Positions 1 to 54,057 of a stretch of DNA of 54,057 bases are shown here, one piece after another (the stretch's first letter is position 1; each line of letters begins with the position of its first letter). The stretch comes from a virus. The notes under the pieces were generated by a model, which was not told the origin of the DNA, made no database searches, and worked only from the letters and a program-made list of their open reading frames with translations. Location: IMG/VR virus record IMGVR_UViG_3300048588_000062. One strand, written 5' to 3'. Position numbers and translations under genes: made by a program.

Positions 1-3000
1 TCCACCGCGATGGCCGGTGACCTGTACATGACGGTGGACAGTGAGAACCGGGTGCTCATCAACCGCATCGGGTTCTCCATGCCGGACGAGACCCAGCGCA
101 CGGAACTGCTGACCGCCTGGGCGGAGCCGGCCGGCGGCAACGCGGTCATTGATCTGCGGATCGCGTTCGGCCCGAGCACACCGGAGAATCTGCAGACCGT
201 TCCTCCCCCGTTCTTCATCGACAGCCAGGAGTACACCCGTGACGGGCTGACGGTGCAGGGCACGTACAACCTGTTCCGCAACATGAAGATCACCTACGAG
301 GGGCAGGGCGGTAAGACCACCACGTCTCCGGTGCAGGACGGGCTGCGCGTGTCGCACGCGCTGTCCGACAACGGGGTGGGTGTGTCGTCGATGGTGTCGA
401 CCAACACCAGCGGGGACAAGAGTGTCGTCAAGGGTCTGGTGACGAACTTCGCGGACCTGTTCATGATGACCGGCGTGGACTTCCGTCACCTGATGGTCGA
501 TTACTTCTACGGCCCGAGCAAGAACGGCCCGCTGACCAACCGGCCCGAGGACGACTTCGAGGCCAAGTGGACCACCGTGCAGGTGTTCCTCGATCGCTGG
601 TCGAAGCTCGAGTCGGACATGACGGCCACTCAGGTCGCCAAGATGTTGGACTTCCAGAACGAGACGGTGGCCGCGTTGCAGCAGTCCAACGAGATCGGTG
701 CGGCCCTGTACACCACGGACTGGCTGCCGCGGATCGCGCAGCAGGGGTCGACGGTCACCCCGCAGGACCGGGTCGCGCACATCCTGCTGATGACACTGCT
801 GATCCCCGGCATCACCCCGAACATGGTGATGAGCAACCCCGGTCTGCTGTCCGTAAAGGATCCGAAGGACAAGACGTTGCAGATCCGCCGGCTGCCACCG
901 GTCATGACGCAGGCCTTCAACGATGTGTCCATGCCGGAGATGCGGCAAATGCTGATCGACTGGGCAAACGAGTCGATGTCGACGCACGTCGACAGCAACG
1001 GCGACACGTACCGCAGTGCCTGGTTCGATTCGACATTCCGCTTCAACGTGGTGATGGAGCAGGTCGATCCGAACGGGGACATCCAGCAGATGGTGCGGCG
1101 GGGCTACGCGCAGCTCGAGACGCTGGTGGCCTCGGACGAGAACCCGGTGACATTGGCCTTCGCGCACAAGAACTCCCGCTCGATGTCGATGCACAACGCC
1201 CGTGTCGCCGCGGCTCAGGGTGGCTCGGTGGTGATCGAGTCCAAGCCGTTGACCAAGGACAACACCCCGATCCCGACGGTGATCGACGAGGTGTACGGCG
1301 ACAACACGGTGATCCGGTTCGACGAGGACCAGACCGTGCTGTGGGATCTGGTGACCCGGATCATGCCGGACACCGGCCCGGTCAGCCCTGCCAAGTACAT
1401 GACGCCGATGGAGGGTGTCCACTACAAGGAGTCGGTCAAGGAACAGATCGTCTACCAGCAGCCGGTGGACAAGGACGGCTGGGACGGGACTGCGGTCGTC
1501 GAGGCGATCAAGTTCCTGAAGTACCTGAACATGGACTCCCGCAGGGATCTGATCGAGGTGGACTATCTGGTGCGCCAGTGGTACGGAGCGCCTGGTCCTC
1601 GGGAGGATCAGAAGTCCGACTGGATCGAACAGATCACGGAGAAGGACTACCTCGAAGCGGTCACCGCGATGATGACCAACGTGGAGAAGAAGATGCACCC
1701 GCTGCACAACGGGATGGTCCCGTTGGAGCATTCGGCGTTTTGGACGAAGCTGTACAAGGCGCAGCAGGGTGCGAGGAAGCCGTGGGCGCCGCTACGCAAG
1801 AACGGCCGGCGCAAGCGGATCGCGGCCTACACGCTGGACGAGTGGACGACCACCCTGCTGGGTCAGGTCTTCGACTCGTACAACGAGTTCCAGGCCATCT
1901 ACCGCACCGCACTGGACGGGTTCTGGCGCACGTACCAGGGCATCACGCCGACGTTCGCCGAGACGCTTGTCTCACTGGACAAGTCGCTGTCGCTGAAACT
2001 GCTCGACCCCGACACGAACCGGCAGTACCTGTCGATCGACCCGAGCGTCCGTGCGCTGATGCACGACCCGCCGATCTACGAGTCGATGAAACTGAACTGG
2101 CGGACCCTGTCCGGCCATGACCCGGTGGTGGACCGGGACGCGATGGACGGGGTGACCGAGTCCAGCTGGCGTCACTACGACGAGAAGCGCAAGGCGTGGA
2201 TACGCAAGAACGGTGTGACCAAGCAGCAGAAGACGTCGATGATCGACTATGCGCGGCAGGGTGCCACGTACCAGGAGTCGGTCAAGACGACCAACTCGTT
2301 CTTCCGCAACGTGTACCACGTCTCGATCGTGAACCGGCTGTTCAACCCGGCACTGTGGACCAGCGCCATGTTCGAGGTGTTCTTCTACAACCAGCTCGAG
2401 AAGGTCACCGATGTCGTGGCCGGGACCGACACCGGTTGGCGCGGCAAGATGATGGCGGCGGCCAGTGAGACCCCGCTGGGCAAACTGATGGGTCTGACTC
2501 CTCGGTACACCGTGGCGGACTACGACCCGTTGGAGCGGATCATCAAGCGGCTGGGTTCCTCGGTGGAGTGGGCCGGTGAGGTGTTCGGCGAGATCACGTT
2601 CTCCACGATGGTCGAACCGGGGGCGCACATCGACGAGGAGGGTCAGCTCGTCTACGGCGCGTCCGGTCGCTTCGGCCGGCTGTTGGAACGCATGGCCACG
2701 GGCACGGCCCGGACGATGAACGACCCGCGGCTGGGTATGCGGCAGACCTCGGCGGCACGACGGTACATCGGGGCTGCCCTCGAGTACCTGGAGATGACGA
2801 ACAACCTGATTCCGCTGGAGACGCTGGCCACGCTGATCGAGCAGGATCCCCTGTGGCTGCAGAAGAACTTCCCCGAGACAGGACCAGGCCCTCACCGTAT
2901 GGGCCTGAACGCTGTGGCGCATATCCGGTCGACGAAGAACTCCGCACTGGCGAAGGGGATCATGTCACCGATCGACACGTTGACGAACGCGGAGAACGTG

Positions 3001-5181
3001 ATCGTCAACGGCATCGGCTACGCCTTGAAGATCCCCTTCGCGTTCACCCGGTTCAACGCCACCACGTTCATGAACCTGACCGGTCTGTCCGGTATGGACC
3101 AGGCGGTGGCGATGATGCTGGGCGGCCGGCAGAAACCGGCGTTCATGCGCAAGGTCGGCGCGTTCTCCCGAGGCGAGAACTACAAGCCTGACACGGTGGA
3201 CACCATCAACATGGATGACGTCATTGAAACCCTGGACCTGTCGCGACTGTTCCTGCGCGGACTGGTGACCCAGACCGGTCTGATGGCGATGGGGTTCCTC
3301 GGCGCCAACCTGTTCAGCTTGGGAGGGGAGACGGACGAGGAACGGCGGCGGCGTAAGATCGCGCAGTTCCTGGATCTCCCCCAGGTCTACGATCCGCGGG
3401 AACTGCAGAACGACTTCCGTCAGGCCGACGCGATCTTCGTGGACAACATCCCGGTGCTCAACCGCATCTTCTACAACGAGGACACCGGGCGCTCAACGAT
3501 CGTGCCGCACTGGATGATCCAGCAGTTCACCTCCCCGATCATGGGCATGACACGGTTCTTCGAGACCGGTGACGTGCGCAACATCGCGTGGGGGTTCCTC
3601 GATGCGATCTCGGTGCTGCCCACTTCGGCGATCCGGTTGTGGCACGACGCCGACCTGACAGCCACCTTGCTGATGCAGGACGCGCAGGCGCTCGCCGGGG
3701 AGAACGCCGATGTCGCCAGGGATCGCGCGATGTGGACGGTCATCAACGTGGTCGGGTTGTACGAGCGGGCCCTGGTGGAGAACCAGTTCATCAACGCGCT
3801 GCGCAATGCCGGCGACCCGCTCGACCGCAACCCGTACGCGGTTCCCGACACCACCAAGTTGGGGCAGGTCATCAAGATCGACGGTGAGCCGGTCAGCACC
3901 GATGCGCTCAAGGCTTACGTCTCCGATCGCAACGGCCAGCCGCAGGCCGGTGTCGGATACGACACCCGCACCGGGTGGAACGCGGCGCTCCACCAGTACG
4001 CCGAGAACAACCTGATGGCCGCTCTGGGGCTGTCGCTGCTCTCCGGTCAGCCCAACAGCGACAGCACCTTCTTCCGGGAGAACATGGTTCCCCGTGGGCG
4101 CGAAGTCCCGGTCGAGCGGACTGTCCGCAAAGATGCGGAGGCCATTCTGCTCGCCCGGTGGAAGGGTGCCGGCGGTATGCCCTTCATGACCAAAGAGGAG
4201 ATCATCCGGGTCATCAAGGCGCGGGAGGAGGGGGCCGGCCGCTGGTGGAAGCAGGACCAGGTCGAGGCCGAGGCCGACGCGGTGTGGAAGGCGATGAAGA
4301 ACGACAACGCCACGCCGACCTTCATCGACAAGAACTCCCGCGAGATCCTGAACGACCCTGGTGCCACCGGCATCATCAAGTCGTTGATGGCCGGAGTCGT
4401 GGACTTCAGTGACCCGGCGTTGCAGGGCATCTACATCACCCAGGAGATGCGCGACCGGATCGGTCAGCAGTGGCTGGAAGAGCTGGTGCAGGAAGGTGTC
4501 GACTACGGGTTGTCGTACGAGTCGGCGCAGTACCGGGCACGACGGTTCTGGTACGGCGACCCCACTCGACCGGAGACTCCGGGGCTGCGGGAGTTGCTGT
4601 ACTCCAAGCAGATCCCCGACAGGCCGACGGCGAACTACACCCAGCTCAACGTGCGGTACACGATCGGCCCGGACGGAAAGCCGTGGGCCACACCGTACGC
4701 CCGTAACTCGTTCCTCGGGACGATCCTTCCGGTCCCCACCGGCATCAAGCCGGCGGCACCGGGGATGCGCCTGGACGAGCGTGGCAACTCGGTGGACGAG
4801 GTGCGCGGCATCAACACCGGCCTGGCCGCGCTGAAACCCAACCTGGTCGAGAGCCAGGTCGAGGCCAATGACAAGCCGTTGGAGCGGGCGCTGGCGAAAC
4901 GGTACACACCGTCGCAGGCCGAACGCGGCAACTCCTATGGCGGGTTCCGCCGAGGCTACTACCGCAGCGGCGGCTGGGGTGGCGGTGGCGGCTGGGGTGG
5001 CTACAGCAGTAGCGGCGGTGGCGGTGCGTACTTCACCCGCACGAACCCCTACCCGCGCAGGTACGGCCCGAACCCCAACGGGATTCCGGCGATCAACTCC
5101 AACACGCCGTACGTGCGGCGTGCCAGCATTCGGCGAGAACGGTTCTCGTCTGAACGAGGAAGGCTGAAGCAATGGCAGTAG
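1..5181 (+). CDS. Giant virion-type protein, C-terminal part. It continues 44568..54057 through the contig junction; the full ORF is 14,544 nt / 4,847 aa.
   Basis: The frame is open from base 1 (TCC ACC GCG ATG ...). Bases 1-127 equal 53931-54057, and base 1 and base 53931 are both first codon positions of the frame opened by ATG 44568. Stop TAG is at 5179-5181. GC3 is uniformly high. A Gly/Tyr/Arg-rich tail lies at 4936-5033. Confidence 0.85.
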   Translation, partial: STAMAGDLYMTVDSENRVLINRIGFSMPDETQRTELLTAWAEPAGGNAVIDLRIAFGPSTPENLQTVPPPFFIDSQEYTRDGLTVQGTYNLFRNMKITYEGQGGKTTTSPVQDGLRVSHALSDNGVGVSSMVSTNTSGDKSVVKGLVTNFADLFMMTGVDFRHLMVDYFYGPSKNGPLTNRPEDDFEAKWTTVQVFLDRWSKLESDMTATQVAKMLDFQNETVAALQQSNEIGAALYTTDWLPRIAQQGSTVTPQDRVAHILLMTLLIPGITPNMVMSNPGLLSVKDPKDKTLQIRRLPPVMTQAFNDVSMPEMRQMLIDWANESMSTHVDSNGDTYRSAWFDSTFRFNVVMEQVDPNGDIQQMVRRGYAQLETLVASDENPVTLAFAHKNSRSMSMHNARVAAAQGGSVVIESKPLTKDNTPIPTVIDEVYGDNTVIRFDEDQTVLWDLVTRIMPDTGPVSPAKYMTPMEGVHYKESVKEQIVYQQPVDKDGWDGTAVVEAIKFLKYLNMDSRRDLIEVDYLVRQWYGAPGPREDQKSDWIEQITEKDYLEAVTAMMTNVEKKMHPLHNGMVPLEHSAFWTKLYKAQQGARKPWAPLRKNGRRKRIAAYTLDEWTTTLLGQVFDSYNEFQAIYRTALDGFWRTYQGITPTFAETLVSLDKSLSLKLLDPDTNRQYLSIDPSVRALMHDPPIYESMKLNWRTLSGHDPVVDRDAMDGVTESSWRHYDEKRKAWIRKNGVTKQQKTSMIDYARQGATYQESVKTTNSFFRNVYHVSIVNRLFNPALWTSAMFEVFFYNQLEKVTDVVAGTDTGWRGKMMAAASETPLGKLMGLTPRYTVADYDPLERIIKRLGSSVEWAGEVFGEITFSTMVEPGAHIDEEGQLVYGASGRFGRLLERMATGTARTMNDPRLGMRQTSAARRYIGAALEYLEMTNNLIPLETLATLIEQDPLWLQKNFPETGPGPHRMGLNAVAHIRSTKNSALAKGIMSPIDTLTNAENVIVNGIGYALKIPFAFTRFNATTFMNLTGLSGMDQAVAMMLGGRQKPAFMRKVGAFSRGENYKPDTVDTINMDDVIETLDLSRLFLRGLVTQTGLMAMGFLGANLFSLGGETDEERRRRKIAQFLDLPQVYDPRELQNDFRQADAIFVDNIPVLNRIFYNEDTGRSTIVPHWMIQQFTSPIMGMTRFFETGDVRNIAWGFLDAISVLPTSAIRLWHDADLTATLLMQDAQALAGENADVARDRAMWTVINVVGLYERALVENQFINALRNAGDPLDRNPYAVPDTTKLGQVIKIDGEPVSTDALKAYVSDRNGQPQAGVGYDTRTGWNAALHQYAENNLMAALGLSLLSGQPNSDSTFFRENMVPRGREVPVERTVRKDAEAILLARWKGAGGMPFMTKEEIIRVIKAREEGAGRWWKQDQVEAEADAVWKAMKNDNATPTFIDKNSREILNDPGATGIIKSLMAGVVDFSDPALQGIYITQEMRDRIGQQWLEELVQEGVDYGLSYESAQYRARRFWYGDPTRPETPGLRELLYSKQIPDRPTANYTQLNVRYTIGPDGKPWATPYARNSFLGTILPVPTGIKPAAPGMRLDERGNSVDEVRGINTGLAALKPNLVESQVEANDKPLERALAKRYTPSQAERGNSYGGFRRGYYRSGGWGGGGGWGGYSSSGGGGAYFTRTNPYPRRYGPNPNGIPAINSNTPYVRRASIRRERFSSERGRLKQWQ

Positions 5182-12773: not shown

Positions 12774-12936
12774 GTTCGGCGATGAGCAGGACGTGGACGC
12801 CGATCTCAACGCAGAGGACGCCGAAGTCGAGACGGCCGAGGAGTACGCCTACGTGGAGCCGAGCACGGATGTGCCGGCACCCGGGGACGACGTGCCCGAC
12901 CAGAACCCCGGCTTCATCGAAGGAGCACACTCATGA
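12754..12936 (+). CDS. Small acidic protein (60 aa)
   Basis: ATG 12754 is preceded by AAGGAGG (12741-12747). Sequence MPAVMDEFGDEQDVDADLNAEDAEVETAEEYAY... The stop overlaps the endolysin start. Confidence 0.5.
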   Translation: MPAVMDEFGDEQDVDADLNAEDAEVETAEEYAYVEPSTDVPAPGDDVPDQNPGFIEGAHS

Positions 12937-22587: not shown

Positions 22588-22648
22588 AGGGGCCTGGGTA
22601 CCTTACTTCTCACGATTGTCGAACGGGTGTTCGCTTGTGAGCCCCTTT

Positions 22649-22765
22649 GTAGTCAATGTAGTCAGTGTAGTCACCTCTTTTACCTTTGTAGAAAGGGGGA
22701 TAGATAAATAGAGTAGTAACTATAGGGGTCTTGAAAGGGGTGACTACAGGTGACTACATGACTAC
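22649..22765. promoter_or_regulatory. Regulatory module R1: 3x GTAGTCA, an AT-rich core, then 3x TGACTAC
   Basis: GTAGTCA is at 22649, 22658 and 22667 (9-bp phase). The core contains TTGAAA (22731-22736). TGACTAC is at 22741, 22751 and 22759. The module lies 140 nt upstream of ATG 22905. Confidence 0.7.
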
Positions 22766-41585: not shown

Positions 41586-41694
41586 GGGCTGATTCAGCGA
41601 GGGTGTCAATGGGTCATGTCCCTGCATCGAGGGGCTGATTCAGCGAGGGTGTCAATGGGTCATGTCCCTGCATCGAGGGGCTGATTCAGCGAGG
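41586..41694. repeat. 46-bp tandem direct repeat, 2.4 copies, each with a CTGATTCAG palindrome
   Basis: Units 41586-41631 and 41632-41677 are identical, and 41678-41694 is a partial copy. The palindromes are at 41589, 41635 and 41681. Confidence 0.9.
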
Positions 41695-43136: not shown

Positions 43137-43213
43137 AGAACGATTCTACCTCGATAGTTCGAGGATGAATAGGACTATGAAGATGTCCACTATGTCCGAA
43201 TTGTCCCAGGTTT

Positions 43214-43332
43214 GTAGTCATGTAGTCACCTGTAGTCACCTGTTTCAAGACCCCTATACTAACTACTATATTCTTCCTTTCTTCTTCTATAAGGGAAGGA
43301 GAAAAAGGTGACTACGCTGACTACAGGACTAC
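43214..43332. promoter_or_regulatory. Regulatory module R2, an inverted copy of R1
   Basis: GTAGTCA is at 43214, 43222 and 43232. TGACTAC is at 43309 and 43318, with GGACTAC at 43326. Positions 43214-43266 match the reverse complement of 22713-22765 at about 51/56 positions. The module lies 78 nt upstream of the 43136 start on the minus strand. Confidence 0.7.
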
Positions 43333-43360
43333 AAATGTCCCTCTGACCAGGGGATTTGTT

Positions 43361-43411
43361 GTAGTCACCTGAAGTAGATTGCAGGTGACTACAGGTGACT
43401 ACACTGACTAC
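43361..43411. promoter_or_regulatory. Third heptamer cluster R2b: a 10-bp inverted repeat plus 3x TGACTAC
   Basis: GTAGTCACCT (43361-43370), a 12-nt spacer, then AGGTGACTAC (43383-43392). TGACTAC is at 43386, 43396 and 43405. This is a direct (same-strand) copy of 22738-22765. Confidence 0.65.
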
Positions 43412-43440
43412 GGCAAATCACTTCAGGTATTGGGAGAGAG

Positions 43441-43799: not shown

Positions 43800-44093
43800 T
43801 TACGGCGTAACCGTAGGCGGAGTGATCTTGTAGGAGACCATGAGGTCTTTGATCTCCTGGGAATCCTCGGTGAACCCGAGATCCAGGAAGATGTTGACAG
43901 CAGTTGCGAATCCGGCAACGCGCTTGTTCATGTTGTCGATGTCGAGTGAGTCACCGACAGCGTTGAGCACTTGTGGCACAACGGTTGCGTAGGCTTCCTC
44001 GACAGGGTCAGGTGCAGAGGCTTCAGCAGGCGTGAGCTTGCTGATTACCATTGCAGTCATCGCTTGTTCGATGGATGTCTTGAAAGTGGACAT
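43800..44093 (-). CDS. Hypothetical small protein (97 aa), lower GC3, first leftward gene
   Basis: Strong SD (AAGGAGG) 5 nt upstream of ATG 44093. GC3 is only about 55% by eye, unlike the rest of the genome. Confidence 0.6.
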   Translation of the reverse strand: MSTFKTSIEQAMTAMVISKLTPAEASAPDPVEEAYATVVPQVLNAVGDSLDIDNMNKRVAGFATAVNIFLDLGFTEDSQEIKDLMVSYKITPPTVTP

Positions 44094-44120
44094 CAGTCCT
44101 CCTTGGTTGAATTGACATTG

Positions 44121-44156
44121 CAGATAGAGCAGATAGAGCAGGAAGAGCAGATAGAG
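44121..44156. repeat. 9-bp tandem repeat CAGATAGAG x4 (the third copy is CAGGAAGAG)
   Basis: Direct reading. It lies 28-63 nt upstream of the 44093 start codon. Confidence 0.85.
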
Positions 44157-44227
44157 CTAGGTGTGACAGGTGGTATAGTTGGAGAAACTGAATCAACTGA
44201 CACGATCCCCACCCCCTCCAGGTGCAG

Positions 44228-44266
44228 AAATACATATACATATATTCATATATACATATATGTATG
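44228..44266. other. AT-rich alternating purine-pyrimidine tract
   Basis: aaatacatatacatatattcatatatacatatatgtatg lies in an otherwise high-GC genome, in the middle of the divergent region between 44093 (-) and 44568 (+). It contains the palindrome TACATATATGTA. Confidence 0.8.
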
Positions 44267-44418
44267 AGGGGGTATAGGGTTGTGTTATTTGTGTTTGTTG
44301 TTTCTTTCCTACCTCCCACAAGAGTTTCTGGATTTCACCAGTTCCTCCACAGGAATCCCCTGACATACCGGCCAAGCCCCCTCAACTGCCGTGTCACCTG
44401 TGTCGCATCCCGAGTGGC

Positions 44419-44460
44419 CACCCGGTGGTGCCGGGTTCCCTTGGGGGTGACCACCGGGTG
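44419..44460 (+). promoter_or_regulatory. 11-bp-stem hairpin in the leader of the giant gene
   Basis: CACCCGGTGGT (44419-44429) pairs with ACCACCGGGTG (44450-44460), about 110 nt upstream of ATG 44568. Confidence 0.4.
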
Positions 44461-44567
44461 ACGTGTCTGTTGTGGTAGGTGCATGATCGGGTTGGAACAC
44501 CCTAGACTCGCGGGTAGACCCGGTGCCATGACGATGGTGCCGCAACGAGTGAAAGTGCGGTTCCTCA

Positions 44568-47500
44568 ATGGCTGACTTCTCGAAGGGCCCATCGGACTAC
44601 TGGAAGAACCAGGCGAGGAATCCGGCTGCTCCGATGGGGTTGCGGCAGGCGTCGGCGTCCACCGCGCAGGATCTTCAGGAGTGGGACGGTCAGGGTCCGA
44701 AGCCGTGGACCCCGGAGTCGATGCTGGATGTGGCGTCGTCGTGGTACACGGGGGCGAACTCCCAGGGCATGGAGAACGGGTGGAACACCGAGTTCATGCA
44801 GAAGGCGTTCGACCAGATGAACCGGTACTACGCGCTCGCCGCCGAGCAGCAGGACCAGTCGGTGTGGTTCACCCAGTTCGATCCGACGAAGAACCCGACC
44901 GCCACGGGTGTGGTGATGTGGGACGACCCGCAGCGGGGGCTGAACTTTGGTGACGTGTTCGTCGACGGGGTGAAGCAGGAGGGGCAGAACCTGTACCAGG
45001 CGTTCGACAAGCGCACCGCCGACGTGATGATGGCGGAGTTCATGTTGGACGGCCCGGAGAAGACCCGGCTGTTCGAGCAGATCCCGAGGGGCAACCCGGA
45101 CGCGGTGGGCAACCGGGTGCAGGAGTTGCGCACGCAGAACTCGGAGACCGCGGCCACGGCGATCACCAAGGGGGAGTTCAAGGCGCAGACCGACGCCAGG
45201 GAGCTGGAGTACCAGCAGGGCTGGCAGGATCCCGCGCTGATCGCGGGTGGCGCGGCCGGCGGTGCGTTGATGGGTGCCGGGATCGGTTCGTTCGGTGGCC
45301 CGGTCGGAACCCTGATCGGTGGCGCGGTGGGCGGCATCGTCGGCGGTGTGTCGTCGTGGTTGAACCAGGACGAGCTGCGTGACCTGGCCGCCCGGTCGGC
45401 GGTGGTGTCGCAGATGGCGAACGAGAGGTATCAGGGCACGGATCAGGTCGGCGCACTCGGTGTCACGATCAAGGAGTTCTCCGGGTTGGGGATGCGTCTG
45501 ATCTCCCCGATGTCGAACACGGTGCGCGGGATCGAGGATGCCCGGCGCGGTGACGTCGGTGACATGACCGCCGAGTGGTACGAGTTCACACCCGACGGTG
45601 ACCGGCAGCGGTCCAACTGGGTGACCGGGCTGGACCTGGCGGCCAGTGTCGCCGACTCGGCGTTGCAGTTCTCCGGCGGTGCCGGGCGTGCGGCGTACAT
45701 GGGGGTGATGGGTGCCACCACGGCCGGTGGGGTCGCAGGCATGATCCCCGGTGAGGGGTTCAACTACTCGACCGGTGAGTTCGATGCGTACGAGAATGCC
45801 GGCGAGTGGATGGCCGCGGCCGGCAGTGTGGCGATCGACGCGGTGCAGATGGGTGGCGCCGGGGCGTTCGTGCGGGCCGCACGCAACTCCCGGGTCGCCA
45901 ACGGGATGCCGAGCCGGGCCTCGGACGAACTGCTGGGTGTGGTGCCCCCGAACGCCCGTGGCCAGTTGCGGCAGTGGGCCGGGGACAAGGCCGCCGCCAT
46001 CACGAGCGCCACCGGGGATGCGGTGGAGAAGGTGGCGGGCAAACGGACGCGGGAGTTCCTGTCCAGCCGGTTCACCGACGAGGGTGAGGTGATCGCGGGC
46101 CGTAGGTACATCCGGGACGCCGACGGCAACATGATGAAGCCGCGGCTGGCGTTGGAGATGCTGGCCCCCAGCGAGATGCTGCGCGCGATCCCGGTCAGCT
46201 ACCGGGCGCGGACCCGCGCCGCCGATCCGATGAACGTCACCCCGGATGACATGTACAACGCGGCACTCGAGCTCACCCGCTACAACGGGCAGTTCCGCAA
46301 CGCGGTGATCATGGGGTACGCGGAAGGCACCGAGGAGTTGGTGCAGGGGATCCTGGATCCTCTGGCGTACAGCGAGAACATCAACCCCGGTCAGGTGTTG
46401 GAGTCGGCGATGTACGGGTTTGCCGGCGGGTTCGGCATGGGCATGGGGTCGATGAGCCGCACGGCGAACTACCAGCAGCAGGTGGACGCCAGGGCCCGTG
46501 TGAACTGGGCGATCCGCAGCGGCAAGTCGATGCCGAACGATGAGCAGTGGGCGCAGATCAAGGAGGGGATGCGCCCGGTGGACATCGAGAAGCTGGCGAT
46601 GCCGACTCCTGAGGAGGACGAGCAGCTGGCCGGGCTGCGCGAGGTGGCGACCGAGGCGATGCGCCAGTCCGGGTTCACCTCCCCGATTGCGATGGCGGTG
46701 TTCGATTCGCTGCGGGAGGGTGCCTGGGAGAAGTTCCTGGCCGGGAAGAACACGGTCGGCGGGCAGTCCCGCACCCTGTTCGGGTCCAGCGACAACAAGA
46801 CGATCAACGTGGGTGGCGCGGTCGAGGAGTTGGAGATGGCGCCGAACTCCGCGGTGATGTCGTTCGACACCACGATCGACACGCTGGTGCGCAACGCCGA
46901 GGGGCTGCGCACGAAGATGACTGCGGCGATGCAGGGCAAGGCGAAGTACGAGGCGATCCAGCAGAACGCCGCCTCGACCCAGGAGCAGAAGGACGAGGCG
47001 GCCCGGATGGTCGCCAAGTACGACGCGCAGATCCTCGACCTGGGGACCGGGGTGCAGGTCGCCGACATGATGGTGGGCACCCGGGACAACCCGGCGATCC
47101 TGCTGCAGATGTACCAGGACTTCCTCGACGACCCGGATGCGCAGTCGAAGATCCAGCGGATCAAGGACTTCAACGCCAAGGTCAAGTCGATGTACGAGGG
47201 CCAGTGGGAGAACAACGGCCAGCTGCTCCCCGGTGAGATGCAGGACGGCGCGAAGAAACTGGTCGAGACCCTGATGACCCGCCATCCGCTGATCGACACC
47301 GGTTCCTGGGGTGTGTTCGTCCCGATGGTGTCGGTGGAGTTGTCACGGGCCAACGCCCACGGTGCGGTGTTCATGCACCAGGCGACGTTGAAGGCGATGG
47401 GTGCCGACCACGACGGGGACAACGCGGTGCAGGCGCAGGAGCAGTATTTCACCCCGGAGCAGTTGCGGAACCTGCGCCGGGGCGTGCAGTACCTGCAGCA

Positions 47501-50500
47501 GGAGAACGAGCAGTTCACCTACGACCCGAAGAACCCGTCAGCGCCGAAGACGAAGTGGAAGGTGGTGGCCGACCCGCCGGACGCGGAGGCCACGTTCATC
47601 CGGAACTTCTCCGACCCGATGCTGACGACCAAGCAGAAGGACATCGTCACCCAGGGCCTGGTCCGGCTGATGAGTCGGCTGCGTGACCGGTACGCGACCA
47701 ACGGCCCGTTCGACTACTCCACGATGGACAACCTGTTGTCGGACTTCGAGGCGAACGTCCGGGCCGGTAACGTGAACGCTCGGGTGCGTCTGGTCGAGGC
47801 GATGTTCGAGGCGAAGGCCCAGGAGCTGTTCGCCATGTCGGACACCACGAACATCCCGGAGTTCTTGCAGATCTGGTCGATGGTGAACCTCGAGTGGGAT
47901 GCGATCCAGCAGAACTTCGCCTACGACTTCTTCCTCAACCGGGAGCAGATGACGACCACCCCGGATGTTCCGGCCCGGCCGGAGGACGACGCCGCGTTGG
48001 AGACCAGGGCCCGCCGGCAGGCGGTGGTGCATGGGCACGCGCTGGCGATGCTGGGCACCGCGGACCCGGTGCGCGCGGCACAGTACCTGCACTACTCGGC
48101 ACTGCTGAAGTCGGCGGTCAGCCTGTCGCACCTCGACCCGGAGACACTGTCCCGCTCGGATCAGCGTCTCGACGAGTTCACCCGTGCGTACGCCCAGATC
48201 GGAACCGGGGACTCCCGTTCCGACATGGACAAGTTCGTCGGGGTGAACGCGATCGAGAGTCGTGTCATCGCAATGCTGGAAGGGATGCTGGACTCCGCCG
48301 ACCTCGGGAACATGTACCCGGATCAGTCGGCTGATCTGAAGGATCTGCTGCGCACCGGGCGCAAGACCGAACTGATGCTGATGCTGGCGAATGTCCGGGT
48401 GCCCGACATGATCGTCGACGAGTCGAACGACATCACGTTCGGCAACCGGGACGTGACGCTGCTGCAGTTGCTGCTGCGCAAGTCGTTGGAGATCGAGAAG
48501 AACCTGAACCGGGACATGGATCAGGACAAGGATCTGATCCGCAAGATCCGCAAGTTGGAGCGGTTGACCCGCCCGGAGACGGATGGGCACAGCAGCACGG
48601 CGGCGCTGGCCACGATGGAGGTGTTCGGCAACACCCCGCTGGCCACGCTGGTCGGGGATGCGTCGATGTACGTCGGCCCGCAGATGACGTTGGCCCAGTA
48701 CCAGAAGAAACTGCTGGCGATGAGTTCGACGCGGCGGCGCGAGGAGCTGGCGCTGCTCAAGCGGGCGCCGCACTACTTCCTGCACAAGACCGTCGGCGAC
48801 CCGCCGTGGTACTTGGAGCAGTTGTACGCGCAGAACGTGGCCGGCCAGACCCGAGGTGCCGAGGTCAACGCCTTCACCATGCTGGTGGATGCGTTGCAGA
48901 CCGCGACCAGTGTGGAGAACGAGCAGCGTCGGCACCAGTCGAATCGCGACATCGAGGCGTTCGAGTCCGGCCTGTTGAAGTTGAGCGAGGTGTTGGACGC
49001 CTGGAACGCCACGCACGGTGCGGACATCCCCGGATCGGCCGACGGCAGTTCGGATCGGGTGGAGATCCTGCGGCACATGCTGCGGTACGAGCCGCGGGCC
49101 GCGCAGATCATCGCCGAGGTGATCCCGCAGGAGTCACGCCTGGGTGTGATCGAGGAGCGTGACGGCCAGGTCACGATGCAGAACTGGGTGGAGCAGGTGC
49201 TCACCGAGAAGGACGAGAAGAAGGCGGCCGTCCAGTTCTACGTGTACTCGAAGCTGGCCGAGTGGAACGTGCTACAGGGGACGCTGGATGTGACGGCGCT
49301 GCACGAGGAGGTGCGCCGCATCCAGGCCGAGGAGCGCGACGACAAGGGCAACCGGTTGTCCAGGGAGCAGGCCTACGCCCGCATCGACCTGGAACAGTTC
49401 CGGTCCCGTGTCCGGCTGGGCCAGGTGAAGTCCCGGTTCCTGCAGACCTTGTGGCACCTGAACATGATCCCCGACGGTGGCCGGGAGTTGCACCGGTTCC
49501 TGGCCACGATCCTCGACGCCGATGATCTGTCGTCGATGTTCGACAGGATCAACGAGGAGCCGATGTGGTTGCAGGGCCGGGCCAAGCTGTACGCCTTCAA
49601 CGACAGTGTCGAGGCGTTCGAGTTGAACCCGAACGACGTGTGGACCACCGATGCCACCGGTACCGAGTACCGGGAGGCGTTGGGTGAGTTCTCGGAGAGC
49701 ATGAGTTCGCTGGCCGACCGCACCGCCGAGCAGGCCGCGAACGCCGAGCAGAACCTGCGCGCCGTCAAGGCGATGCAGGAGGTGCTGCGCAAGCTCCTCA
49801 ACGGGGAGCCGCTGGGCGACGGCTTCGATCAGCAGGGCGCTCTATTGCTGCAGCAGTTGGAGAAGGCGATCCAGGTGGCCCGGGAGTTCCCGGATGCGAT
49901 CGGCCGGCGGGCCAGGGACCAGGCGATGGCCGCGTTCCAGACCATGTACATCCGGATGCACGACAAGGGCAAGGCCGATCCGCGTATCGCCCCGCTGGGG
50001 GCCGCTGCGATGACCGCGGACACCATCGGGTTCGGCGACCCGTTGCAGTTGGAGATGGGTGCGATCACCAGTTTCAGCTGGTCGGACGTTTCCTCGAACC
50101 TGTCGGCTCTGGCCAAGGGCCCGGTGCGCATCATGCTGGACAACGGCAAGGTGCTGGACATCGACATGTCCACCTTGGAGGGCGCGGTCGAGATGCTGGC
50201 CGACCCGTTGACGCAGCCGTTTGCGATGGCGGTGCTGTTCCCCACGGTGAGGGATGTGAACTCCCAGAACACTGTGTCCACGTACCAGAGCACGATGGCG
50301 CGGTCCAAGCCGGACCCGAACTCCCCGAAGGGGGAGGGCAACCTGGCTCAGATGTTGGCGGAGGTGAACTTCGCCAACCTGTTCAACCCGCCGAACCAGG
50401 AGTCGAGGGTCGATCAGGCGTACCGCTACATCGGGCATGTCGAGGCGTACATCCGTCGGGCGGCGTTGGACACGGCCACCACCGCACCGGACACGGACAT

Positions 50501-53500
50501 CGAACTCGAGGAGCTGGAGTTCGGGTACTATCCGATCCAGAACATGCTCAACTCGTTCCTCGTGGCGTACCAGACGACGGCCGGCCGCGGCCGGACCGAC
50601 GAGCAGAACGAGAAGATCCGCGACGAGCTGGTGGTCGCGGTGGCCGACATGCTGAAGATGTTGAGCACGAAGTCGGACTTCGCCCTGGACACGATCAAGC
50701 AGGAACTGGTGGCCGTATTGCAGGCCAGGTTCTGGCAGGACGACACGATGGTCCAGGTCGTGCTGGACCGTGAAGATCCGCTCAGTGATGCGGTGGCCGA
50801 CTACATGATGAAGGCCATCGAAGGGGTGTTCATCCGTGAGAAGAACGAGGCCACCGCACGGTTCCAGGCCGCACTGAACCAGGGTGTTCCGCAGGCGACC
50901 GCCGTGGCGCAGTACCAGCAGGAACTGGCCGACATCACGACCCGTGAGGACGAGTTCAACTCGTCGGGCTCGTTGCAGACGATGCCGTACCTGGCACGGG
51001 ATTTCAGCACCGTGGGCCAGATGTTCGCCATGACGCACGATCCTGCCGACGCGGTGCGCGACATGCAGGCCAAGGTGCTGCTCGTGTCATTCCTCGGCAA
51101 GCAGGATCGGATCAACAAACTCCAAGGGGTGAAGGCCGCCTTCACCATCGAGGACCATGCTGGTGCGGAGACCGATGAGTCGTTCGCCGCGCTGATCGAC
51201 AAGTTCCGCGAGACCGTGTACGACAAGGACTTCGACATCGCGGACATGGCGAACTCCGACCCGTTGCAGCCGAACGAGTGGAATCAGCTGCGGTTGTGGG
51301 CCACGCAGCAGTTCATCTCGGAACGGGTCGTCGCCTCCTCGGCGGACATGAGCATGGCGGCGATCATCCTCGGCAAGAACGAGGATGAGATCCGCCGGCT
51401 GTACGACACGTCGTGGAGTTATCTGGTCGACACCGCGTTCGACAAGCGAACACTGGCCGCTGCCCGCAGGCTCGCGGAACTGGCGCAGCACCGGGACTCG
51501 ATGGATTCGGCCCGGGTGCGGGACACGATCCTCAACCGGCTGTTCCCGGATCGGCTGCTCGGCACCTGGAACGACCGGGTTCCGATCGAGACGCTGAAGG
51601 CGAAGAAGGTTCTGGACGGCGCGGCCGTCAAGGAGTCCGTGGCCGCCGCCGGTATCGCCCCGAAGGAGATGGATGCGTGGATCGCCGGGGAGCAGACCAC
51701 GTTCCTGAAGCCGACCGCCGAACACTTCACGGAGGCGTCGTTGGTCGTGGCGGACGGTTCCGACATCCAGCAGGTGATGGACGTCCTCAACGATGCGATG
51801 CTCGGGTTGAAGACCCACAACCACTTCGTGCGGGCTGTCGAGCTGATCCCCACCGACACCGCGCTGCCGCCGGAGAACCTGTTCGGGATCGTCACCGAGG
51901 TCGACGACACCAACGACGAGACGGAGAACAGCGGGCTGCAGCTGTTCAAATTGGAGCAGTTGCTCGACCACATGATGCGCCGGGTGGAACAGGGCGAGGA
52001 TTCCTCGCAGACCGCCCCGAGTCTGGTTCAAGGGTTCACTCTGCGCATCGAGTACGTCGATGTGGACAAGCAGCCGGACGGTAGGGACTGGGCGAACAAC
52101 CGCTTCTTCGAGGGCCGGGGCCGCAACGCCACGGGCCGTAACGACCTCGGCCCGATCACCGCGCTGTACTTCGGCACCGGAGGCCTGTCGAAACTGTGGC
52201 AGCAGTCCCCGCTGGACTCGCTGACCAAGAAGGGCCAGGCGTTCCGGGCGTTCCTGCAGACCGCACTGGATCATGTGCGCAACTCGATGGAGAACAAGAC
52301 CACGGTCACCGAGGTGATGCAGGAGAAGACGCTGCACCTGATGGGCCGGCGCTTCGGTGGCGTGATGTTGCAGTGGGACGACATGCCGGCGATCTACAAG
52401 TACGTGAAGTCCCGGCATGTCATGGTCGGCCGCAACCGCAACACCGGCAAGAAGGAGGTGTGGCGGGTCGAGAAGTACATGGAGATGGAGGCCCGTGCCG
52501 CCACCGACCCCAACTTCGTGTTCGAGTTGGAAGCCCTTGACGGCAGCGGCGGCCCCGCGGAACTGGTGGCCCTGTCGCACAAGGTGGCGCAGACGTTGAA
52601 GGGCCGCCCCGGTGTCGGTGGTGTGGCGCAGGATACGCAGTATCCGTACACGAACGTCTCGGACGCCGACCCGTTCCCGTCGTACGACATGGGCCGGTTG
52701 GAGCAGCTGGGCCTCGCCGAGATCGGGGAGAAGGCGAAGGCGAAGGAGTCCCCGGCCGGACGGCACGGGTTGCTGACCAAGGCGTACGGGAAGGGCGGGC
52801 CGACCCGCAAGGGCGTGCGCTCCCTGTACCAGGCACGGATCGACAGGCTGATCACCGAGGAGCGCCTGCCCCAGCTCGAGGTGCGCAGCAACTACCGCAG
52901 TCAGGACCAGGGCAAGCTGGACATCGCGGAGACGCACAAGTGGGGGATGAAGGTCGTCGGCGAGATGCTGCGGCTGGAGGCTCTGGGTGAACGGCTGAAC
53001 AAGTTGGGCATCCCGAACATGCTGATGAAGGATTTGATGCAGCTCGAATCCTCGGAGCGGCTGTACCACCGGCTGTTCAAAGACCTCGACCCCAACTCGA
53101 TGGTGTGGCAGCACAAGCAGGACGAGACCAGCGGTGACCCGACACGCGGCCTGATCAGCCCGGTGGAGGTGCGGGAAGGATTCCCGAACACGATCCAGCC
53201 GGTGATCGGCGACATCGTGGTGCTGGACCTGACCTCGTTCATGAACAACACCGGGCAGAACGAGCAGGAGGCCATCGACCAGGCGAAGCAGGTCATCGAC
53301 GTCTACGTACGCAAGGGGGTGTCCATCGTCCTCGGTGGCACGACCAGCGTGAACGGTGTGCGCCAGGCGCTCGTCGAGCATCTGACGTTCGGCACGATGG
53401 GCTACAAGCGCAAGGGCATGTCCGGGCACATCTTCGAGCCGATCAGTGACGACTGGGATGTGGACCTCACCGAGCAGGCACTGGACTCCACACTGTCCGA

Positions 53501-54057
53501 GGTGACAGCGATGTCCGCGGCGAACACCGCTGTCACACTGGTGACCGACGAGTTCTCCGCGTTGAGCGAGGGGACGCGGCTGATCTGGATGGATCAGCCC
53601 AGCCCGTGGCAGCAGTTCGCCACCGTGCTGATCCCGACACAGTTCCTGCTGGGCGCCTCCGATGACCATGTGTTGTCGTTCGGGCTGCCGCAGCATGGCA
53701 CCGGTCAGGCCGACCAGTTCGGCAAGGTGGCCAAGAAGATCATCGACTACGCCGCCACGCAGGAAGGGTTCGACGATCTGCTGGACATGATGGGTCGCTA
53801 CGATCCGATGATCTCGCTGTACCAGCAAACGGCCGACGGCTATGTCGCGCCGGGCGTCCGGCCTCCTGAGGAGGCGCTGAAACTGTTCATCGCCGCCTTG
53901 AAGCAGGGCGGGCAGATGATCGACCCGGGTTCCACCGCGATGGCCGGTGACCTGTACATGACGGTGGACAGTGAGAACCGGGTGCTCATCAACCGCATCG
54001 GGTTCTCCATGCCGGACGAGACCCAGCGCACGGAACTGCTGACCGCCTGGGCGGAGC
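44568..54057 (+). CDS. Giant virion-type protein, N-terminal part. It is open to the window end and carries a beta-prime-like DPBB catalytic motif (putative virion RNA polymerase).
   Basis: ATG 44568 is the first start after the in-frame TGA at 44550. I translated 44568-54057 by hand and met no stop codon. The ORF is absent from the track because no stop occurs before the window end. The long minus-strand track ORFs here (44565..47285, 47538..49076, 49842..51038, 51087..53828) are antisense shadows. The DHDGD motif is at 47406-47420 and a glycine-zipper hydrophobic segment at 45231-45362. Confidence 0.85.
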   Translation, partial: MADFSKGPSDYWKNQARNPAAPMGLRQASASTAQDLQEWDGQGPKPWTPESMLDVASSWYTGANSQGMENGWNTEFMQKAFDQMNRYYALAAEQQDQSVWFTQFDPTKNPTATGVVMWDDPQRGLNFGDVFVDGVKQEGQNLYQAFDKRTADVMMAEFMLDGPEKTRLFEQIPRGNPDAVGNRVQELRTQNSETAATAITKGEFKAQTDARELEYQQGWQDPALIAGGAAGGALMGAGIGSFGGPVGTLIGGAVGGIVGGVSSWLNQDELRDLAARSAVVSQMANERYQGTDQVGALGVTIKEFSGLGMRLISPMSNTVRGIEDARRGDVGDMTAEWYEFTPDGDRQRSNWVTGLDLAASVADSALQFSGGAGRAAYMGVMGATTAGGVAGMIPGEGFNYSTGEFDAYENAGEWMAAAGSVAIDAVQMGGAGAFVRAARNSRVANGMPSRASDELLGVVPPNARGQLRQWAGDKAAAITSATGDAVEKVAGKRTREFLSSRFTDEGEVIAGRRYIRDADGNMMKPRLALEMLAPSEMLRAIPVSYRARTRAADPMNVTPDDMYNAALELTRYNGQFRNAVIMGYAEGTEELVQGILDPLAYSENINPGQVLESAMYGFAGGFGMGMGSMSRTANYQQQVDARARVNWAIRSGKSMPNDEQWAQIKEGMRPVDIEKLAMPTPEEDEQLAGLREVATEAMRQSGFTSPIAMAVFDSLREGAWEKFLAGKNTVGGQSRTLFGSSDNKTINVGGAVEELEMAPNSAVMSFDTTIDTLVRNAEGLRTKMTAAMQGKAKYEAIQQNAASTQEQKDEAARMVAKYDAQILDLGTGVQVADMMVGTRDNPAILLQMYQDFLDDPDAQSKIQRIKDFNAKVKSMYEGQWENNGQLLPGEMQDGAKKLVETLMTRHPLIDTGSWGVFVPMVSVELSRANAHGAVFMHQATLKAMGADHDGDNAVQAQEQYFTPEQLRNLRRGVQYLQQENEQFTYDPKNPSAPKTKWKVVADPPDAEATFIRNFSDPMLTTKQKDIVTQGLVRLMSRLRDRYATNGPFDYSTMDNLLSDFEANVRAGNVNARVRLVEAMFEAKAQELFAMSDTTNIPEFLQIWSMVNLEWDAIQQNFAYDFFLNREQMTTTPDVPARPEDDAALETRARRQAVVHGHALAMLGTADPVRAAQYLHYSALLKSAVSLSHLDPETLSRSDQRLDEFTRAYAQIGTGDSRSDMDKFVGVNAIESRVIAMLEGMLDSADLGNMYPDQSADLKDLLRTGRKTELMLMLANVRVPDMIVDESNDITFGNRDVTLLQLLLRKSLEIEKNLNRDMDQDKDLIRKIRKLERLTRPETDGHSSTAALATMEVFGNTPLATLVGDASMYVGPQMTLAQYQKKLLAMSSTRRREELALLKRAPHYFLHKTVGDPPWYLEQLYAQNVAGQTRGAEVNAFTMLVDALQTATSVENEQRRHQSNRDIEAFESGLLKLSEVLDAWNATHGADIPGSADGSSDRVEILRHMLRYEPRAAQIIAEVIPQESRLGVIEERDGQVTMQNWVEQVLTEKDEKKAAVQFYVYSKLAEWNVLQGTLDVTALHEEVRRIQAEERDDKGNRLSREQAYARIDLEQFRSRVRLGQVKSRFLQTLWHLNMIPDGGRELHRFLATILDADDLSSMFDRINEEPMWLQGRAKLYAFNDSVEAFELNPNDVWTTDATGTEYREALGEFSESMSSLADRTAEQAANAEQNLRAVKAMQEVLRKLLNGEPLGDGFDQQGALLLQQLEKAIQVAREFPDAIGRRARDQAMAAFQTMYIRMHDKGKADPRIAPLGAAAMTADTIGFGDPLQLEMGAITSFSWSDVSSNLSALAKGPVRIMLDNGKVLDIDMSTLEGAVEMLADPLTQPFAMAVLFPTVRDVNSQNTVSTYQSTMARSKPDPNSPKGEGNLAQMLAEVNFANLFNPPNQESRVDQAYRYIGHVEAYIRRAALDTATTAPDTDIELEELEFGYYPIQNMLNSFLVAYQTTAGRGRTDEQNEKIRDELVVAVADMLKMLSTKSDFALDTIKQELVAVLQARFWQDDTMVQVVLDREDPLSDAVADYMMKAIEGVFIREKNEATARFQAALNQGVPQATAVAQYQQELADITTREDEFNSSGSLQTMPYLARDFSTVGQMFAMTHDPADAVRDMQAKVLLVSFLGKQDRINKLQGVKAAFTIEDHAGAETDESFAALIDKFRETVYDKDFDIADMANSDPLQPNEWNQLRLWATQQFISERVVASSADMSMAAIILGKNEDEIRRLYDTSWSYLVDTAFDKRTLAAARRLAELAQHRDSMDSARVRDTILNRLFPDRLLGTWNDRVPIETLKAKKVLDGAAVKESVAAAGIAPKEMDAWIAGEQTTFLKPTAEHFTEASLVVADGSDIQQVMDVLNDAMLGLKTHNHFVRAVELIPTDTALPPENLFGIVTEVDDTNDETENSGLQLFKLEQLLDHMMRRVEQGEDSSQTAPSLVQGFTLRIEYVDVDKQPDGRDWANNRFFEGRGRNATGRNDLGPITALYFGTGGLSKLWQQSPLDSLTKKGQAFRAFLQTALDHVRNSMENKTTVTEVMQEKTLHLMGRRFGGVMLQWDDMPAIYKYVKSRHVMVGRNRNTGKKEVWRVEKYMEMEARAATDPNFVFELEALDGSGGPAELVALSHKVAQTLKGRPGVGGVAQDTQYPYTNVSDADPFPSYDMGRLEQLGLAEIGEKAKAKESPAGRHGLLTKAYGKGGPTRKGVRSLYQARIDRLITEERLPQLEVRSNYRSQDQGKLDIAETHKWGMKVVGEMLRLEALGERLNKLGIPNMLMKDLMQLESSERLYHRLFKDLDPNSMVWQHKQDETSGDPTRGLISPVEVREGFPNTIQPVIGDIVVLDLTSFMNNTGQNEQEAIDQAKQVIDVYVRKGVSIVLGGTTSVNGVRQALVEHLTFGTMGYKRKGMSGHIFEPISDDWDVDLTEQALDSTLSEVTAMSAANTAVTLVTDEFSALSEGTRLIWMDQPSPWQQFATVLIPTQFLLGASDDHVLSFGLPQHGTGQADQFGKVAKKIIDYAATQEGFDDLLDMMGRYDPMISLYQQTADGYVAPGVRPPEEALKLFIAALKQGGQMIDPGSTAMAGDLYMTVDSENRVLINRIGFSMPDETQRTELLTAWAE
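53931..54057. repeat. 127-bp exact duplicate of 1..127 (circular-contig overlap)
   Basis: Direct comparison shows tccaccgcgatggccggtgacctgtac...gcctgggcggagc identical at both ends. It lies inside coding sequence and keeps the reading frame. Confidence 0.95.

Follow-up and report, generated by a model that had tools for sequence, protein, structure and literature searches.

The viral record IMGVR_UViG_3300048588_000062 of IMG/VR, whose whole 54,057-nucleotide (nt) stretch we refer to as the window, carries a single giant open reading frame (ORF) that takes up more than a quarter of the genome, precedes the portal gene and is cut in two by the ends of the contig. The frame is opened by ATG 44568, the first start codon after the closest in-frame upstream stop (TGA 44550-44552), and runs free of stops for 3,163 codons as far as the window end. 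Because positions 53931-54057 equal positions 1-127 letter for letter (127 nt being the longest terminal overlap), the circular unit measures 53,930 bp, and because 53931 and 1 are both first codon positions, the frame carries on to TAG 5179-5181. The circularised ORF comprises 14,544 nt, or 26.97% of the 53,930 bp, and its product has 4,847 amino acids (aa; all aa numbers below refer to residues of this product), a mass of 539 kDa and an isoelectric point (pI) of 5.1. This circularised translation agrees with the original prediction, which had proposed one 14,544-nt, 4,847-aa ORF from ATG 44568 covering about 27% of the genome and had pointed out the terminal identity with its preserved codon phase.

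44568-54057, plus strand: giant ORF, part 1 (codons 1-3163 plus 1 nt, running off the window end); no stop, coding-type guanine-plus-cytosine content at third codon positions (GC3)
1-5181, plus strand: giant ORF, part 2 (codons 3122-4847 and the stop TAG 5179-5181); circularised translation and alignment to contig L186
53931-54057, no strand assigned: terminal overlap of 127 nt; exact identity to 1-127, read straight through by the relative's contig L186

Because frames running off an end were omitted from the ORF list, the list shows the giant gene as 10..5181 only (1,723 aa, starting at an internal Met), which had rightly been recognised as merely the C-terminal portion of the ORF and makes up 36% of it by our computation. 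Long antisense shadow ORFs lie over 44.5-53.8 kb (44565-47285, 47538-49076, 49842-51038 and 51087-53828), and it is through these four that the region seems empty or minus-stranded, as had been remarked before. High-GC genomes do yield long spurious frames, the four antisense ones among them, and the window ends within the frame, both of which might favour an artefact, be it a misassembly, a chance or shadow frame in GC-rich DNA, or several merged genes. This explanation is effectively excluded. The chance of 4,847 open codons at the given base composition is about 5e-63, the GC content at codon positions 1, 2 and 3 (0.61/0.42/0.91) follows the pattern of the other genes, and GC3 stays between 0.88 and 0.95 in each 300-codon block. 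Moreover, a database protein (P0001) of likewise 4,847 aa differs from the circularised product at 42 residues (99.1% identical), and its contig from a separate sequencing run (Logan assembly SRR18474652_30902, locus L186, 18.2 kb) aligns to the rotated window in a single 17.3-kb block of 97.8% identity that spans the 53930/1 junction. More than 100 colinear homologues of the same length show conservation from residue 1 to the last. An overlooked in-frame stop between 44568 and 54057, which the original prediction had named as one way to fail, was looked for and none was found, while the second, a misassembled junction, is contradicted by the L186 alignment and P0001. The giant ORF is one real, continuous gene, and the 127-nt overlap is the closing overlap of a circular assembly and no biological repeat.

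According to PHROG searches, the plus strand encodes a terminase (26329-27789) and tail fibre proteins, and the minus strand, with its replication genes at 28.8-42.6 kb, a DNA polymerase I, a primase, a helicase and an ATPase. Identity of the terminase is 73% with Arthrobacter phage MissAmericana, 70% with Burrovirus-type Microbacterium phages (Arete and relatives), 69% with Burro and 61% with EK2 phages. The annotated relatives share a layout in which a leftward replication arm is followed by a gap of about 1-2 kb, a gene of 13.3-13.5 kb and an overlapping portal gene, with capsid, tail, lysis, 'nozzle' and terminase genes downstream, and the order in the window is identical.

5172-7157, plus strand: portal gene; identity 64% with its MissAmericana and 56% with its Burro counterpart

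The portal ATG overlaps the end of the giant gene by 10 nt (ATGGCAGTAG); the overlap is also 10 nt in Burro, Arete and MissAmericana, and 4 nt in Akoni. The capsid protein (7192-8556) is 81-82% identical to those of isolated relatives and the nozzle homologue about 50%. Because gene order is shared and terminase, portal, capsid and nozzle are all similar, these sequence comparisons identify the window as the complete genome of a new, uncultured relative of the Microbacterium EK/Burro and Arthrobacter MissAmericana podophages. The lysis region is separate from the giant gene (ORF 12933-13577, with a weak endolysin PHROG match), and the corresponding place in relatives holds an annotated endolysin. 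At 18975-22553, the counterpart of Burro gp41 and of the 'nozzle protein' of MissAmericana measures 1,192 aa, versus 794-883 aa in those phages; its alignment falls into two blocks, implying that about 300 aa have been inserted.

When parts of the giant gene were compared with GenBank phages by BLAST, neither the nucleotide nor the protein search gave a match, and its family was reached via the terminase alone. BLASTP comparison with the giant proteins of isolated relatives then gave E-values down to 3e-155, with colinear matches of 21-30% identity to Burro gp27, Arete gp27 and MissAmericana gp30 that take in the N-terminal, middle and C-terminal regions; those to Akoni gp31 end near aa 4732. 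The position of the gene is that of the family as well: it is the first gene of the rightward arm, its end at 5181 overlaps the portal ATG at 5172, and the genome of about 54 kb has divergent arms. Judged from sequence and position, the window protein is a divergent member of the EK/Burro giant virion protein family. Nearer relatives (41-45% identity) were found in metagenomes only. An exhaustive HMMER search with aa 301-1500 collected 167 representatives (50% clustering), nearly all of 4,370-4,898 aa, whereas other homologue searches with aa 451-1450 or a five-sequence profile returned nothing despite these relatives. All 19 loci on contigs of 49-55 kb in an IMG/VR scan have the giant frame. 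Even within the family's range the gene of the window is unusually long, its product exceeding those of the isolated relatives (4,434-4,494 aa) by 350-410 aa. In an alignment of 41 sequences, whose members are 21-45% identical to the window protein, invariant columns extend from G62 through W4846. Divergence from the isolated relatives is uneven, since the giant protein retains 21-30% identity compared to 81-82% for the capsid, 56-64% for the portal and 61-73% for the terminase. The giant protein therefore diverges much faster than the neighbouring virion genes and, by these identities, is by far the fastest-evolving virion gene product.

Both gene and family are already known, and the window adds a divergent, unusually long member. 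Jacobs-Sera et al. 2020 (PMC7302621) described the giant gene, with more than 4,400 residues and few informative domains, as the most striking EK/Burro feature, found the protein to be without motifs in common with the N4 virion RNA polymerase and left its role unknown. In the same study, a band of about 250 kDa in Burro virions was attributed to gp27, suggesting processing; virion association of the family protein was shown for Burro only (PMC7302621). The genome announcements of Akoni and Xitlalli mention a gene of about 13.5 kb and unknown function preceding the portal gene. The original prediction had mentioned such a gene in Microbacterium cluster EK, which matches both PMC7302621 and the announcements, and the proteins are colinear. 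We found no literature link of the giant family to a polymerase, with subscription journals lying outside the search. The MissAmericana copy (L001 14977-28281; PQ184795.1 gene 30) is annotated as 'tape measure protein' despite its position 5' of the portal and the lack of a long-tail module, and this label is probably a misannotation. As a candidate function, a tail tape measure protein was rejected for the family: the relatives are podoviruses by electron microscopy, the gene lies 5' of the portal and outside the tail-tube module, and the likeness is a non-specific helical one.

In the translation, we noticed that aa 904-955 (...TRHPLIDTGSWGVFVPMV...MGADHDGDNAV...) resemble the active-site barrel of the beta-prime subunit of bacterial RNA polymerase (NRAPTLHRLGIQAFEPV...NADFDGDQMAV).

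47268-47480, plus strand: predicted beta-prime-like double-psi beta-barrel segment (aa 901-971) with R905-x-P907 invariant; from hhalign and the structural model
47406-47420, plus strand: putative catalytic-type loop D947-H-D949-G950-D951 (DxDGD), aligning to beta-prime D460, D462 and D464
46833-47927, plus strand: confidently modelled core (aa ~756-1120), predicted local distance difference test (pLDDT) score mostly 80-95; AlphaFold2 model mf868ce9f6a59 and Foldseek

Residues R905, P907, D947, D949, G950 and D951 are invariant in the 41 sequences aligned above, and exactly one DxDGD is present, at the equivalent site, in 118/118 family representatives longer than 4,000 aa. Among 116 sequences with intact N-terminus, the loop reads DFDGD in 54, DYDGD in 30 and DHDGD in 26 (others, 6), and a single DxDGD was likewise found in 17 of the 19 IMG/VR loci (of the other two, L016 is cut off ahead of the site and L017 was left out). 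Because the RxP...DxDGD signature is invariant in 118/118 sequences that are otherwise only about 25% identical, chemistry rather than scaffolding is indicated. Profiles of RpoB and RpoC were built from 56 proteobacterial operons, and hhalign of the full-length family profile (4,847 columns) against RpoC gave as best match family positions 901-971 to beta-prime 421-482 (P 0.0085), in register with R425/P427, P438 and D460/D462/D464 of E. coli beta-prime. With a 116-sequence core profile, the match to RpoC reached P 9e-4 and a score of 40.2, compared to scores of 16-19 for reversed RpoC, RpoB and reversed RpoB.

AlphaFold2 models were made for aa 497-1397 and aa 3122-4321, each from a 17-sequence alignment. 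In the first (mean pLDDT 71), the predicted strands and helix around the DxDGD loop follow the order of the beta-prime barrel. When this model was compared by Foldseek with 350,542 PDB chains, beta-prime chains of bacterial RNA polymerases occupied all of ranks 1-13 (E between 3.5e-3 and 6e-2, probability at most 0.77), whereas the 1,200-residue model of aa 3122-4321, serving as control, drew a scatter of unrelated proteins at E >=0.15. Together, profile and model point to a double-psi beta-barrel of beta-prime type with a DxDxD loop, on evidence that is moderate and not decisive, and we consider it quite likely that aa 901-971 form a true beta-prime-type catalytic barrel.

Outside the barrel, sequence and profile searches of the giant protein in Pfam, PHROG, NCBIfam and PDB gave sub-threshold Gly-zipper matches at most. 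Conservation peaks at both ends, at aa ~200-400 and ~4,200-4,847, and four further elements stand out.

45234-45359, plus strand: Gly-zipper hydrophobic segment (aa 223-264, ALIAGGAAGGALMGAGIGSFGGPVGTLIGGAVGGIVGGVSSW); hydropathy peak, sub-threshold Gly-zipper matches in Pfam and PHROG
46167-46439, plus strand: helical block APSE...GEGxEExxQ...GxGMG (aa 534-624); invariant in 41 diverse members, modelled as helices with pLDDT ~70-80
3250-3372, plus strand: second hydrophobic Gly-rich segment followed by a nearly invariant GE(D/T)(D/E)Ex-RRRR (aa 4205-4245); conservation profile
4933-5181, plus strand: C-terminal tail, a poly-Gly/Tyr run and then a strongly basic end (...RRASIRRERFSSERGRLKQWQ); last 100 aa with pI 11.3

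The Gly-zipper segment is a candidate membrane-inserting element by its sequence. In one family member (P0040), about 70 residues of the equivalent region match the C-terminal end of gp7, an ejection protein of P22 (E 2.3e-5; sub-threshold at 24.8 bits, the Pfam cut-off being 28). In the helical block, P534-S535-E536, E586, E589, E590, Q593, G617 and G621 are invariant. The second hydrophobic segment opens the best-conserved region (mean 0.59 over aa 4201-4300; G4230 and E4234 invariant), and the C-terminal tail is the most conserved portion of the protein, with R4827, R4828, R4833, R4835, R4842, L4843 and W4846 invariant and the same ending present in Burro, Arete, Akoni and MissAmericana. 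This tail may be a packaging, portal-docking or DNA-binding signal. Further invariant blocks without a recognisable match are HDKG (aa 1798-1801) and R3143/K3217/K3226/K3261. The latter fall into a beta-rich conserved block at aa 2861-3300 (nt ~53148-54057 and 1-537), where G3145 is invariant too and the motifs GD(I)(I)PL...LYRHGxKxP and SKxAxxGxVxNFRxAF occur; its model is of low confidence and gave no structural match.

Taken together, we lean, with modest confidence and on sequence, models and analogy, towards a mechanism in which the giant protein is ejected and carries a virion RNA polymerase. A few copies would be packaged in the capsid beside the portal, perhaps via the invariant basic C-terminal tail, and at infection the protein would be ejected through the short tail. 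The Gly-zipper and the other hydrophobic segments could help to bridge the Gram-positive envelope, while aa ~500-1400, with the beta-prime-type barrel and its putatively Mg-binding DxDGD, would be an RNA polymerase brought in by the virion, with which phage transcription could begin without the host enzyme. Among these steps, we infer ejection, insertion into the membrane, polymerase activity and any role in early transcription. This reading is the best supported because the PHROG searches recognised no further RNA polymerase in any of the long ORFs of the genome, because the Burro protein is found in virions and because there are two precedents of DxDxD polymerases concealed in giant virion proteins.

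Several observations weigh against a polymerase, and membership of the giant protein in the two-barrel polymerase class is still incomplete. To our knowledge, every enzyme of this class needs both barrels. A beta-type partner was not found, the best RpoB profile match having P 0.3 in hhalign, and three candidates for it were rejected. GEGxEExxQ (aa 585-593), considered as the beta 'GEME' motif, is modelled as a long helix, and the adjoining RpoB match has P 0.4. For aa 3127-3290 ('GDxxPL...RxG', 'K3217...G.K3226'), considered as the barrel itself, the model is of low confidence, with N-terminal strands of the aa 3122-4321 model at pLDDT 31-66, and Foldseek returned no polymerase. HDKG at aa 1798-1801 resembles the beta 'RHGNKG' by eye, and hhalign gave nothing there. 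In the aa 497-1397 model, strand clusters at aa 506-527 and 735-764 flank a helical insert, and the barrel is followed by long helices with an invariant R1169-x2-Q1172 and a nearly invariant Y1176 in a low-confidence stretch; hhalign of the family profile against RpoC matched neither bridge helix nor trigger loop.

The structural comparisons also carry counterweights. Foldseek E-values are weak and global TM-scores (template modelling) low (0.10-0.14), the solved single-chain two-barrel enzymes of viruses and RNAi (6VR4, 2J7N, P23-45) lie outside the Foldseek top 50, and matches in the viral structure library BFVD are the protein's own family (Burro, Truong) and then non-specific helical tape-measure and minor-tail proteins at E ~1e-2. 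A 72-sequence profile of crAss gp66 matches in hhalign at the loop only (P 0.35), and a single gp66 sequence was also non-significant. No polymerase domain was detected in Pfam, PHROG, NCBIfam or PDB sequence searches, and the Asn of NADFDGD is replaced by Gly in the giant family. In addition, EK genomes were reported as circularly permuted (Akoni and Xitlalli announcements), and there is therefore no fixed leading end for an N4-style, transcription-coupled entry. Finally, the predicted structures cover aa 497-1397 and 3122-4321 of the 4,847 aa.

The alternative that survives best, which we regard as possible though less probable, is that the giant protein is purely structural and without polymerase activity: an internal or ejection protein, a 'tape-measure-like' conduit or capsid cargo across the thick Gram-positive wall, in which the DxDGD loop binds metal or has another structural role and the beta-prime likeness is remote or convergent. 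The annotation of MissAmericana gp30 is in keeping with this, as are the predominance of long helices in the predicted models, the tape-measure or minor-tail proteins that make up the BFVD matches beyond the family, the Gly-zipper segments with the sub-threshold P22 gp7 match, and the failure to find a second barrel or a database polymerase domain. Fast divergence (21-30% versus 81-82% for the capsid) is likewise what would be expected for a host-interface protein. A purely structural role accounts poorly for an R-x-P...D-x-D-G-D that never varies in 118/118 sequences of such low overall identity, for the in-register profile match to the beta-prime active site with flat controls, and for 13 top PDB matches that are all beta-prime when the control model gave none; moreover, an ejection role is compatible with the virion-delivered polymerase, which includes it.

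A bolder possibility, to which we attach little weight, is a polymerase of unprecedented build. Its beta-prime-like barrel would be nearer to the cellular enzyme than to known single-chain viral polymerases and would have no recognisable beta-type partner in the same chain, so that either a strongly derived barrel elsewhere in the 4,847 residues might complete the active centre or two copies might pair to do so. One polypeptide would then be both envelope-spanning ejection conduit and transcription machine, widespread in actinobacterial podophages.

Still less probable, in our estimation, is that the DxDGD barrel is a wall-degrading double-psi beta-barrel (of the MltA '3D domain', RlpA or expansin type) that opens the peptidoglycan at ejection, in the manner of the lytic domains of other ejection proteins. 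Lytic transglycosylases with conserved aspartates share the double-psi beta-barrel fold, the activity would suit a podophage of an actinobacterium, and no other wall hydrolase was recognised within the giant protein. However, ten family members gave no Pfam 3D, DPBB_1 or SLT match at E up to 1, the Foldseek top 50 are led by the 13 beta-prime chains and contain no MltA, RlpA or expansin, a contiguous DxDGD following RxP at beta-prime spacing is a polymerase signature, and the genome has its own lysis region (ORF 12933-13577). A T7-like single-subunit RNA polymerase of the N4 type embedded in the giant protein, suggested by analogous size and virion location, is effectively refuted at the level of sequence and predicted fold for aa 497-1397 and 3122-4321, as neither half has a Pfam T7-type match or a PDB sequence match to the N4 virion RNA polymerase, Foldseek returns beta-prime and no T7 or N4 polymerases for these regions, and PMC7302621 likewise found no shared motifs.

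Outside the giant gene, several repeats and a small gene were also noted.

44094-44567, no strand assigned: divergent upstream region with an AT-rich stretch (GC 41%, 44.1-44.3 kb); composition and repeats
L006 5174-5382; L007 7238-7332; L015 7206-7395; L016 7247-7453; L017 7041-7277, no strand assigned: clusters of the 10-mer TGTAGTCACC in relatives

Positions 44094-44567 are probably the promoter region of the giant/structural operon. Within them, GCAGATAGA is repeated three to four times at 44120-44155, with a related copy at 43008, and AT-rich palindromic CATATA(C/T)ATAT repeats occupy 44225-44265 in a 41%-GC island about 300 nt 5' of the giant ATG. The 10-mer TGTAGTCACC / GGTGACTACA occurs in 17 copies within one mismatch versus 2.8 expected, a number reached in 0/100 shuffles. 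Its copies cluster at two intergenic sites, 43211-43412 and 22647-22765, at each of which about 55 nt of AT-rich spacer separate three copies in direct from three in inverted orientation. One of the clusters is situated 1.15-1.35 kb 5' of the giant gene, and clusters of the exact 10-mer are found at the same relative position in the five related IMG/VR contigs listed above. Their role may be that of an operator, of an origin or of a promoter element specific to the phage. A small leftward ORF (43800-44093, 97 aa, minus strand) is followed by a very strong terminator-like hairpin with a 16-bp stem (43793-43758). It is placed like the small gene 5' of the giant gene in Burro (gp26), Arete (gp26), Akoni (gp30) and MissAmericana (gp29), and BLASTP showed no similarity to the two tested, Burro gp26 and MissAmericana gp29. 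Near the end of the leftward arm, at 41586-41694, lies a perfect 46-nt tandem repeat of 2.4 copies (GGGCTGATTCAGCGAGGGTGTCAATGGGTCATGTCCCTGCATCGAG).

The EK/Burro giant gene has been flagged since 2020 among the largest viral genes, and later announcements still list it as of 'unknown function'. With at least 118 distinct full-length lineages of 4.4-4.9 thousand residues each, a shared beta-prime-type loop turns this label into a hypothesis testable in cultured Burro, Arete and Akoni. The invariant beta-prime-type signature, the size and uniformity of the family and its fast divergence relative to the conserved virion module appear unreported in the searchable literature. Should the polymerase hypothesis hold, virion-packaged two-barrel RNA polymerases would exist in a third, unrelated phage group, which would be their first occurrence in phages that infect Actinobacteria. 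The window also illustrates that ORF callers dropping frames off the ends of circular contigs can conceal a quarter of a genome.

Compared with known systems, the window is closest to the EK1/EK2 phages, Burro (gp27), Arete (gp27), Akoni (gp31) and MissAmericana (gp30), which share the position of the giant gene, its portal overlap, the genome size of about 54 kb and the layout. The proteins are colinear over most of their length and have both the DxDGD loop and the ending ...RRxxIRRERFSSxRGRLxxWQ, although they are only 21-30% identical to that of the window when capsid, portal and terminase reach 56-82%. The GC content is 62.8% here versus about 60% in EK phages, and the window is known from an uncultured assembly alone. 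Bacterial beta-prime has RxP-(~35-40 aa)-DxDGD in register and the same order of secondary structure around the loop. This likeness is limited at the sequence level to about 70 residues, as no clamp, bridge helix or trigger loop was recognised in the window protein, and, unlike in cellular beta-prime, the predicted barrel sits within a 4,847-aa virion protein.

The N4 virion polymerase, which the original prediction had put forward as the best-known analogue, holds as an analogy of size and location and fails as a relative. According to PMC13434306, N4 gp50 is a giant capsid-internal protein ejected to bridge the envelope and to transcribe early genes. The N4 enzyme is T7-like, whereas the giant protein of the window has no such similarity: no T7-like palm, fingers or thumb domain was matched in Pfam, PHROG, NCBIfam or PDB sequence searches, nor by Foldseek in the two modelled regions. 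The ejection proteins of N4, T7 and P22 offer an analogous delivery logic, with P22 gp7 showing the weak likeness to the Gly-zipper segment described above.

Because the predicted catalytic loop belongs to the beta-prime ('two-barrel') class, crAss-like phages and P23-45 provide, in their virion polymerases, the closer analogues. In phi14:2, a crAss-like phage, gp66 is a virion-packaged two-barrel polymerase beside giant virion proteins (bioRxiv 10.1101/2020.03.07.982082). Like the window protein, it is a large podophage virion protein with a DxDxD loop, encoded in the structural module and invisible to ordinary domain searches. Its motif is DFDID versus DxDGD here, with no significant profile likeness beyond the loop (P 0.35), and phi14:2 gp65, gp66 and gp67 total about 5,400 aa, near the size of the single protein of the window, in three genes there and one here. 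Thermus phage P23-45 is a siphovirus whose gp96 measures a long tail, whereas the window belongs to a short-tailed lineage, and gp96 is compared here by description only. It is a 5,002-aa tape-measure-fused virion RNA polymerase that was first spotted through a conserved DFDGD (PMC10770324). Its polymerase is N-terminal, with both barrels solved, and the fusion partner is a DNA-delivery protein that has membrane segments (PMC10770324).

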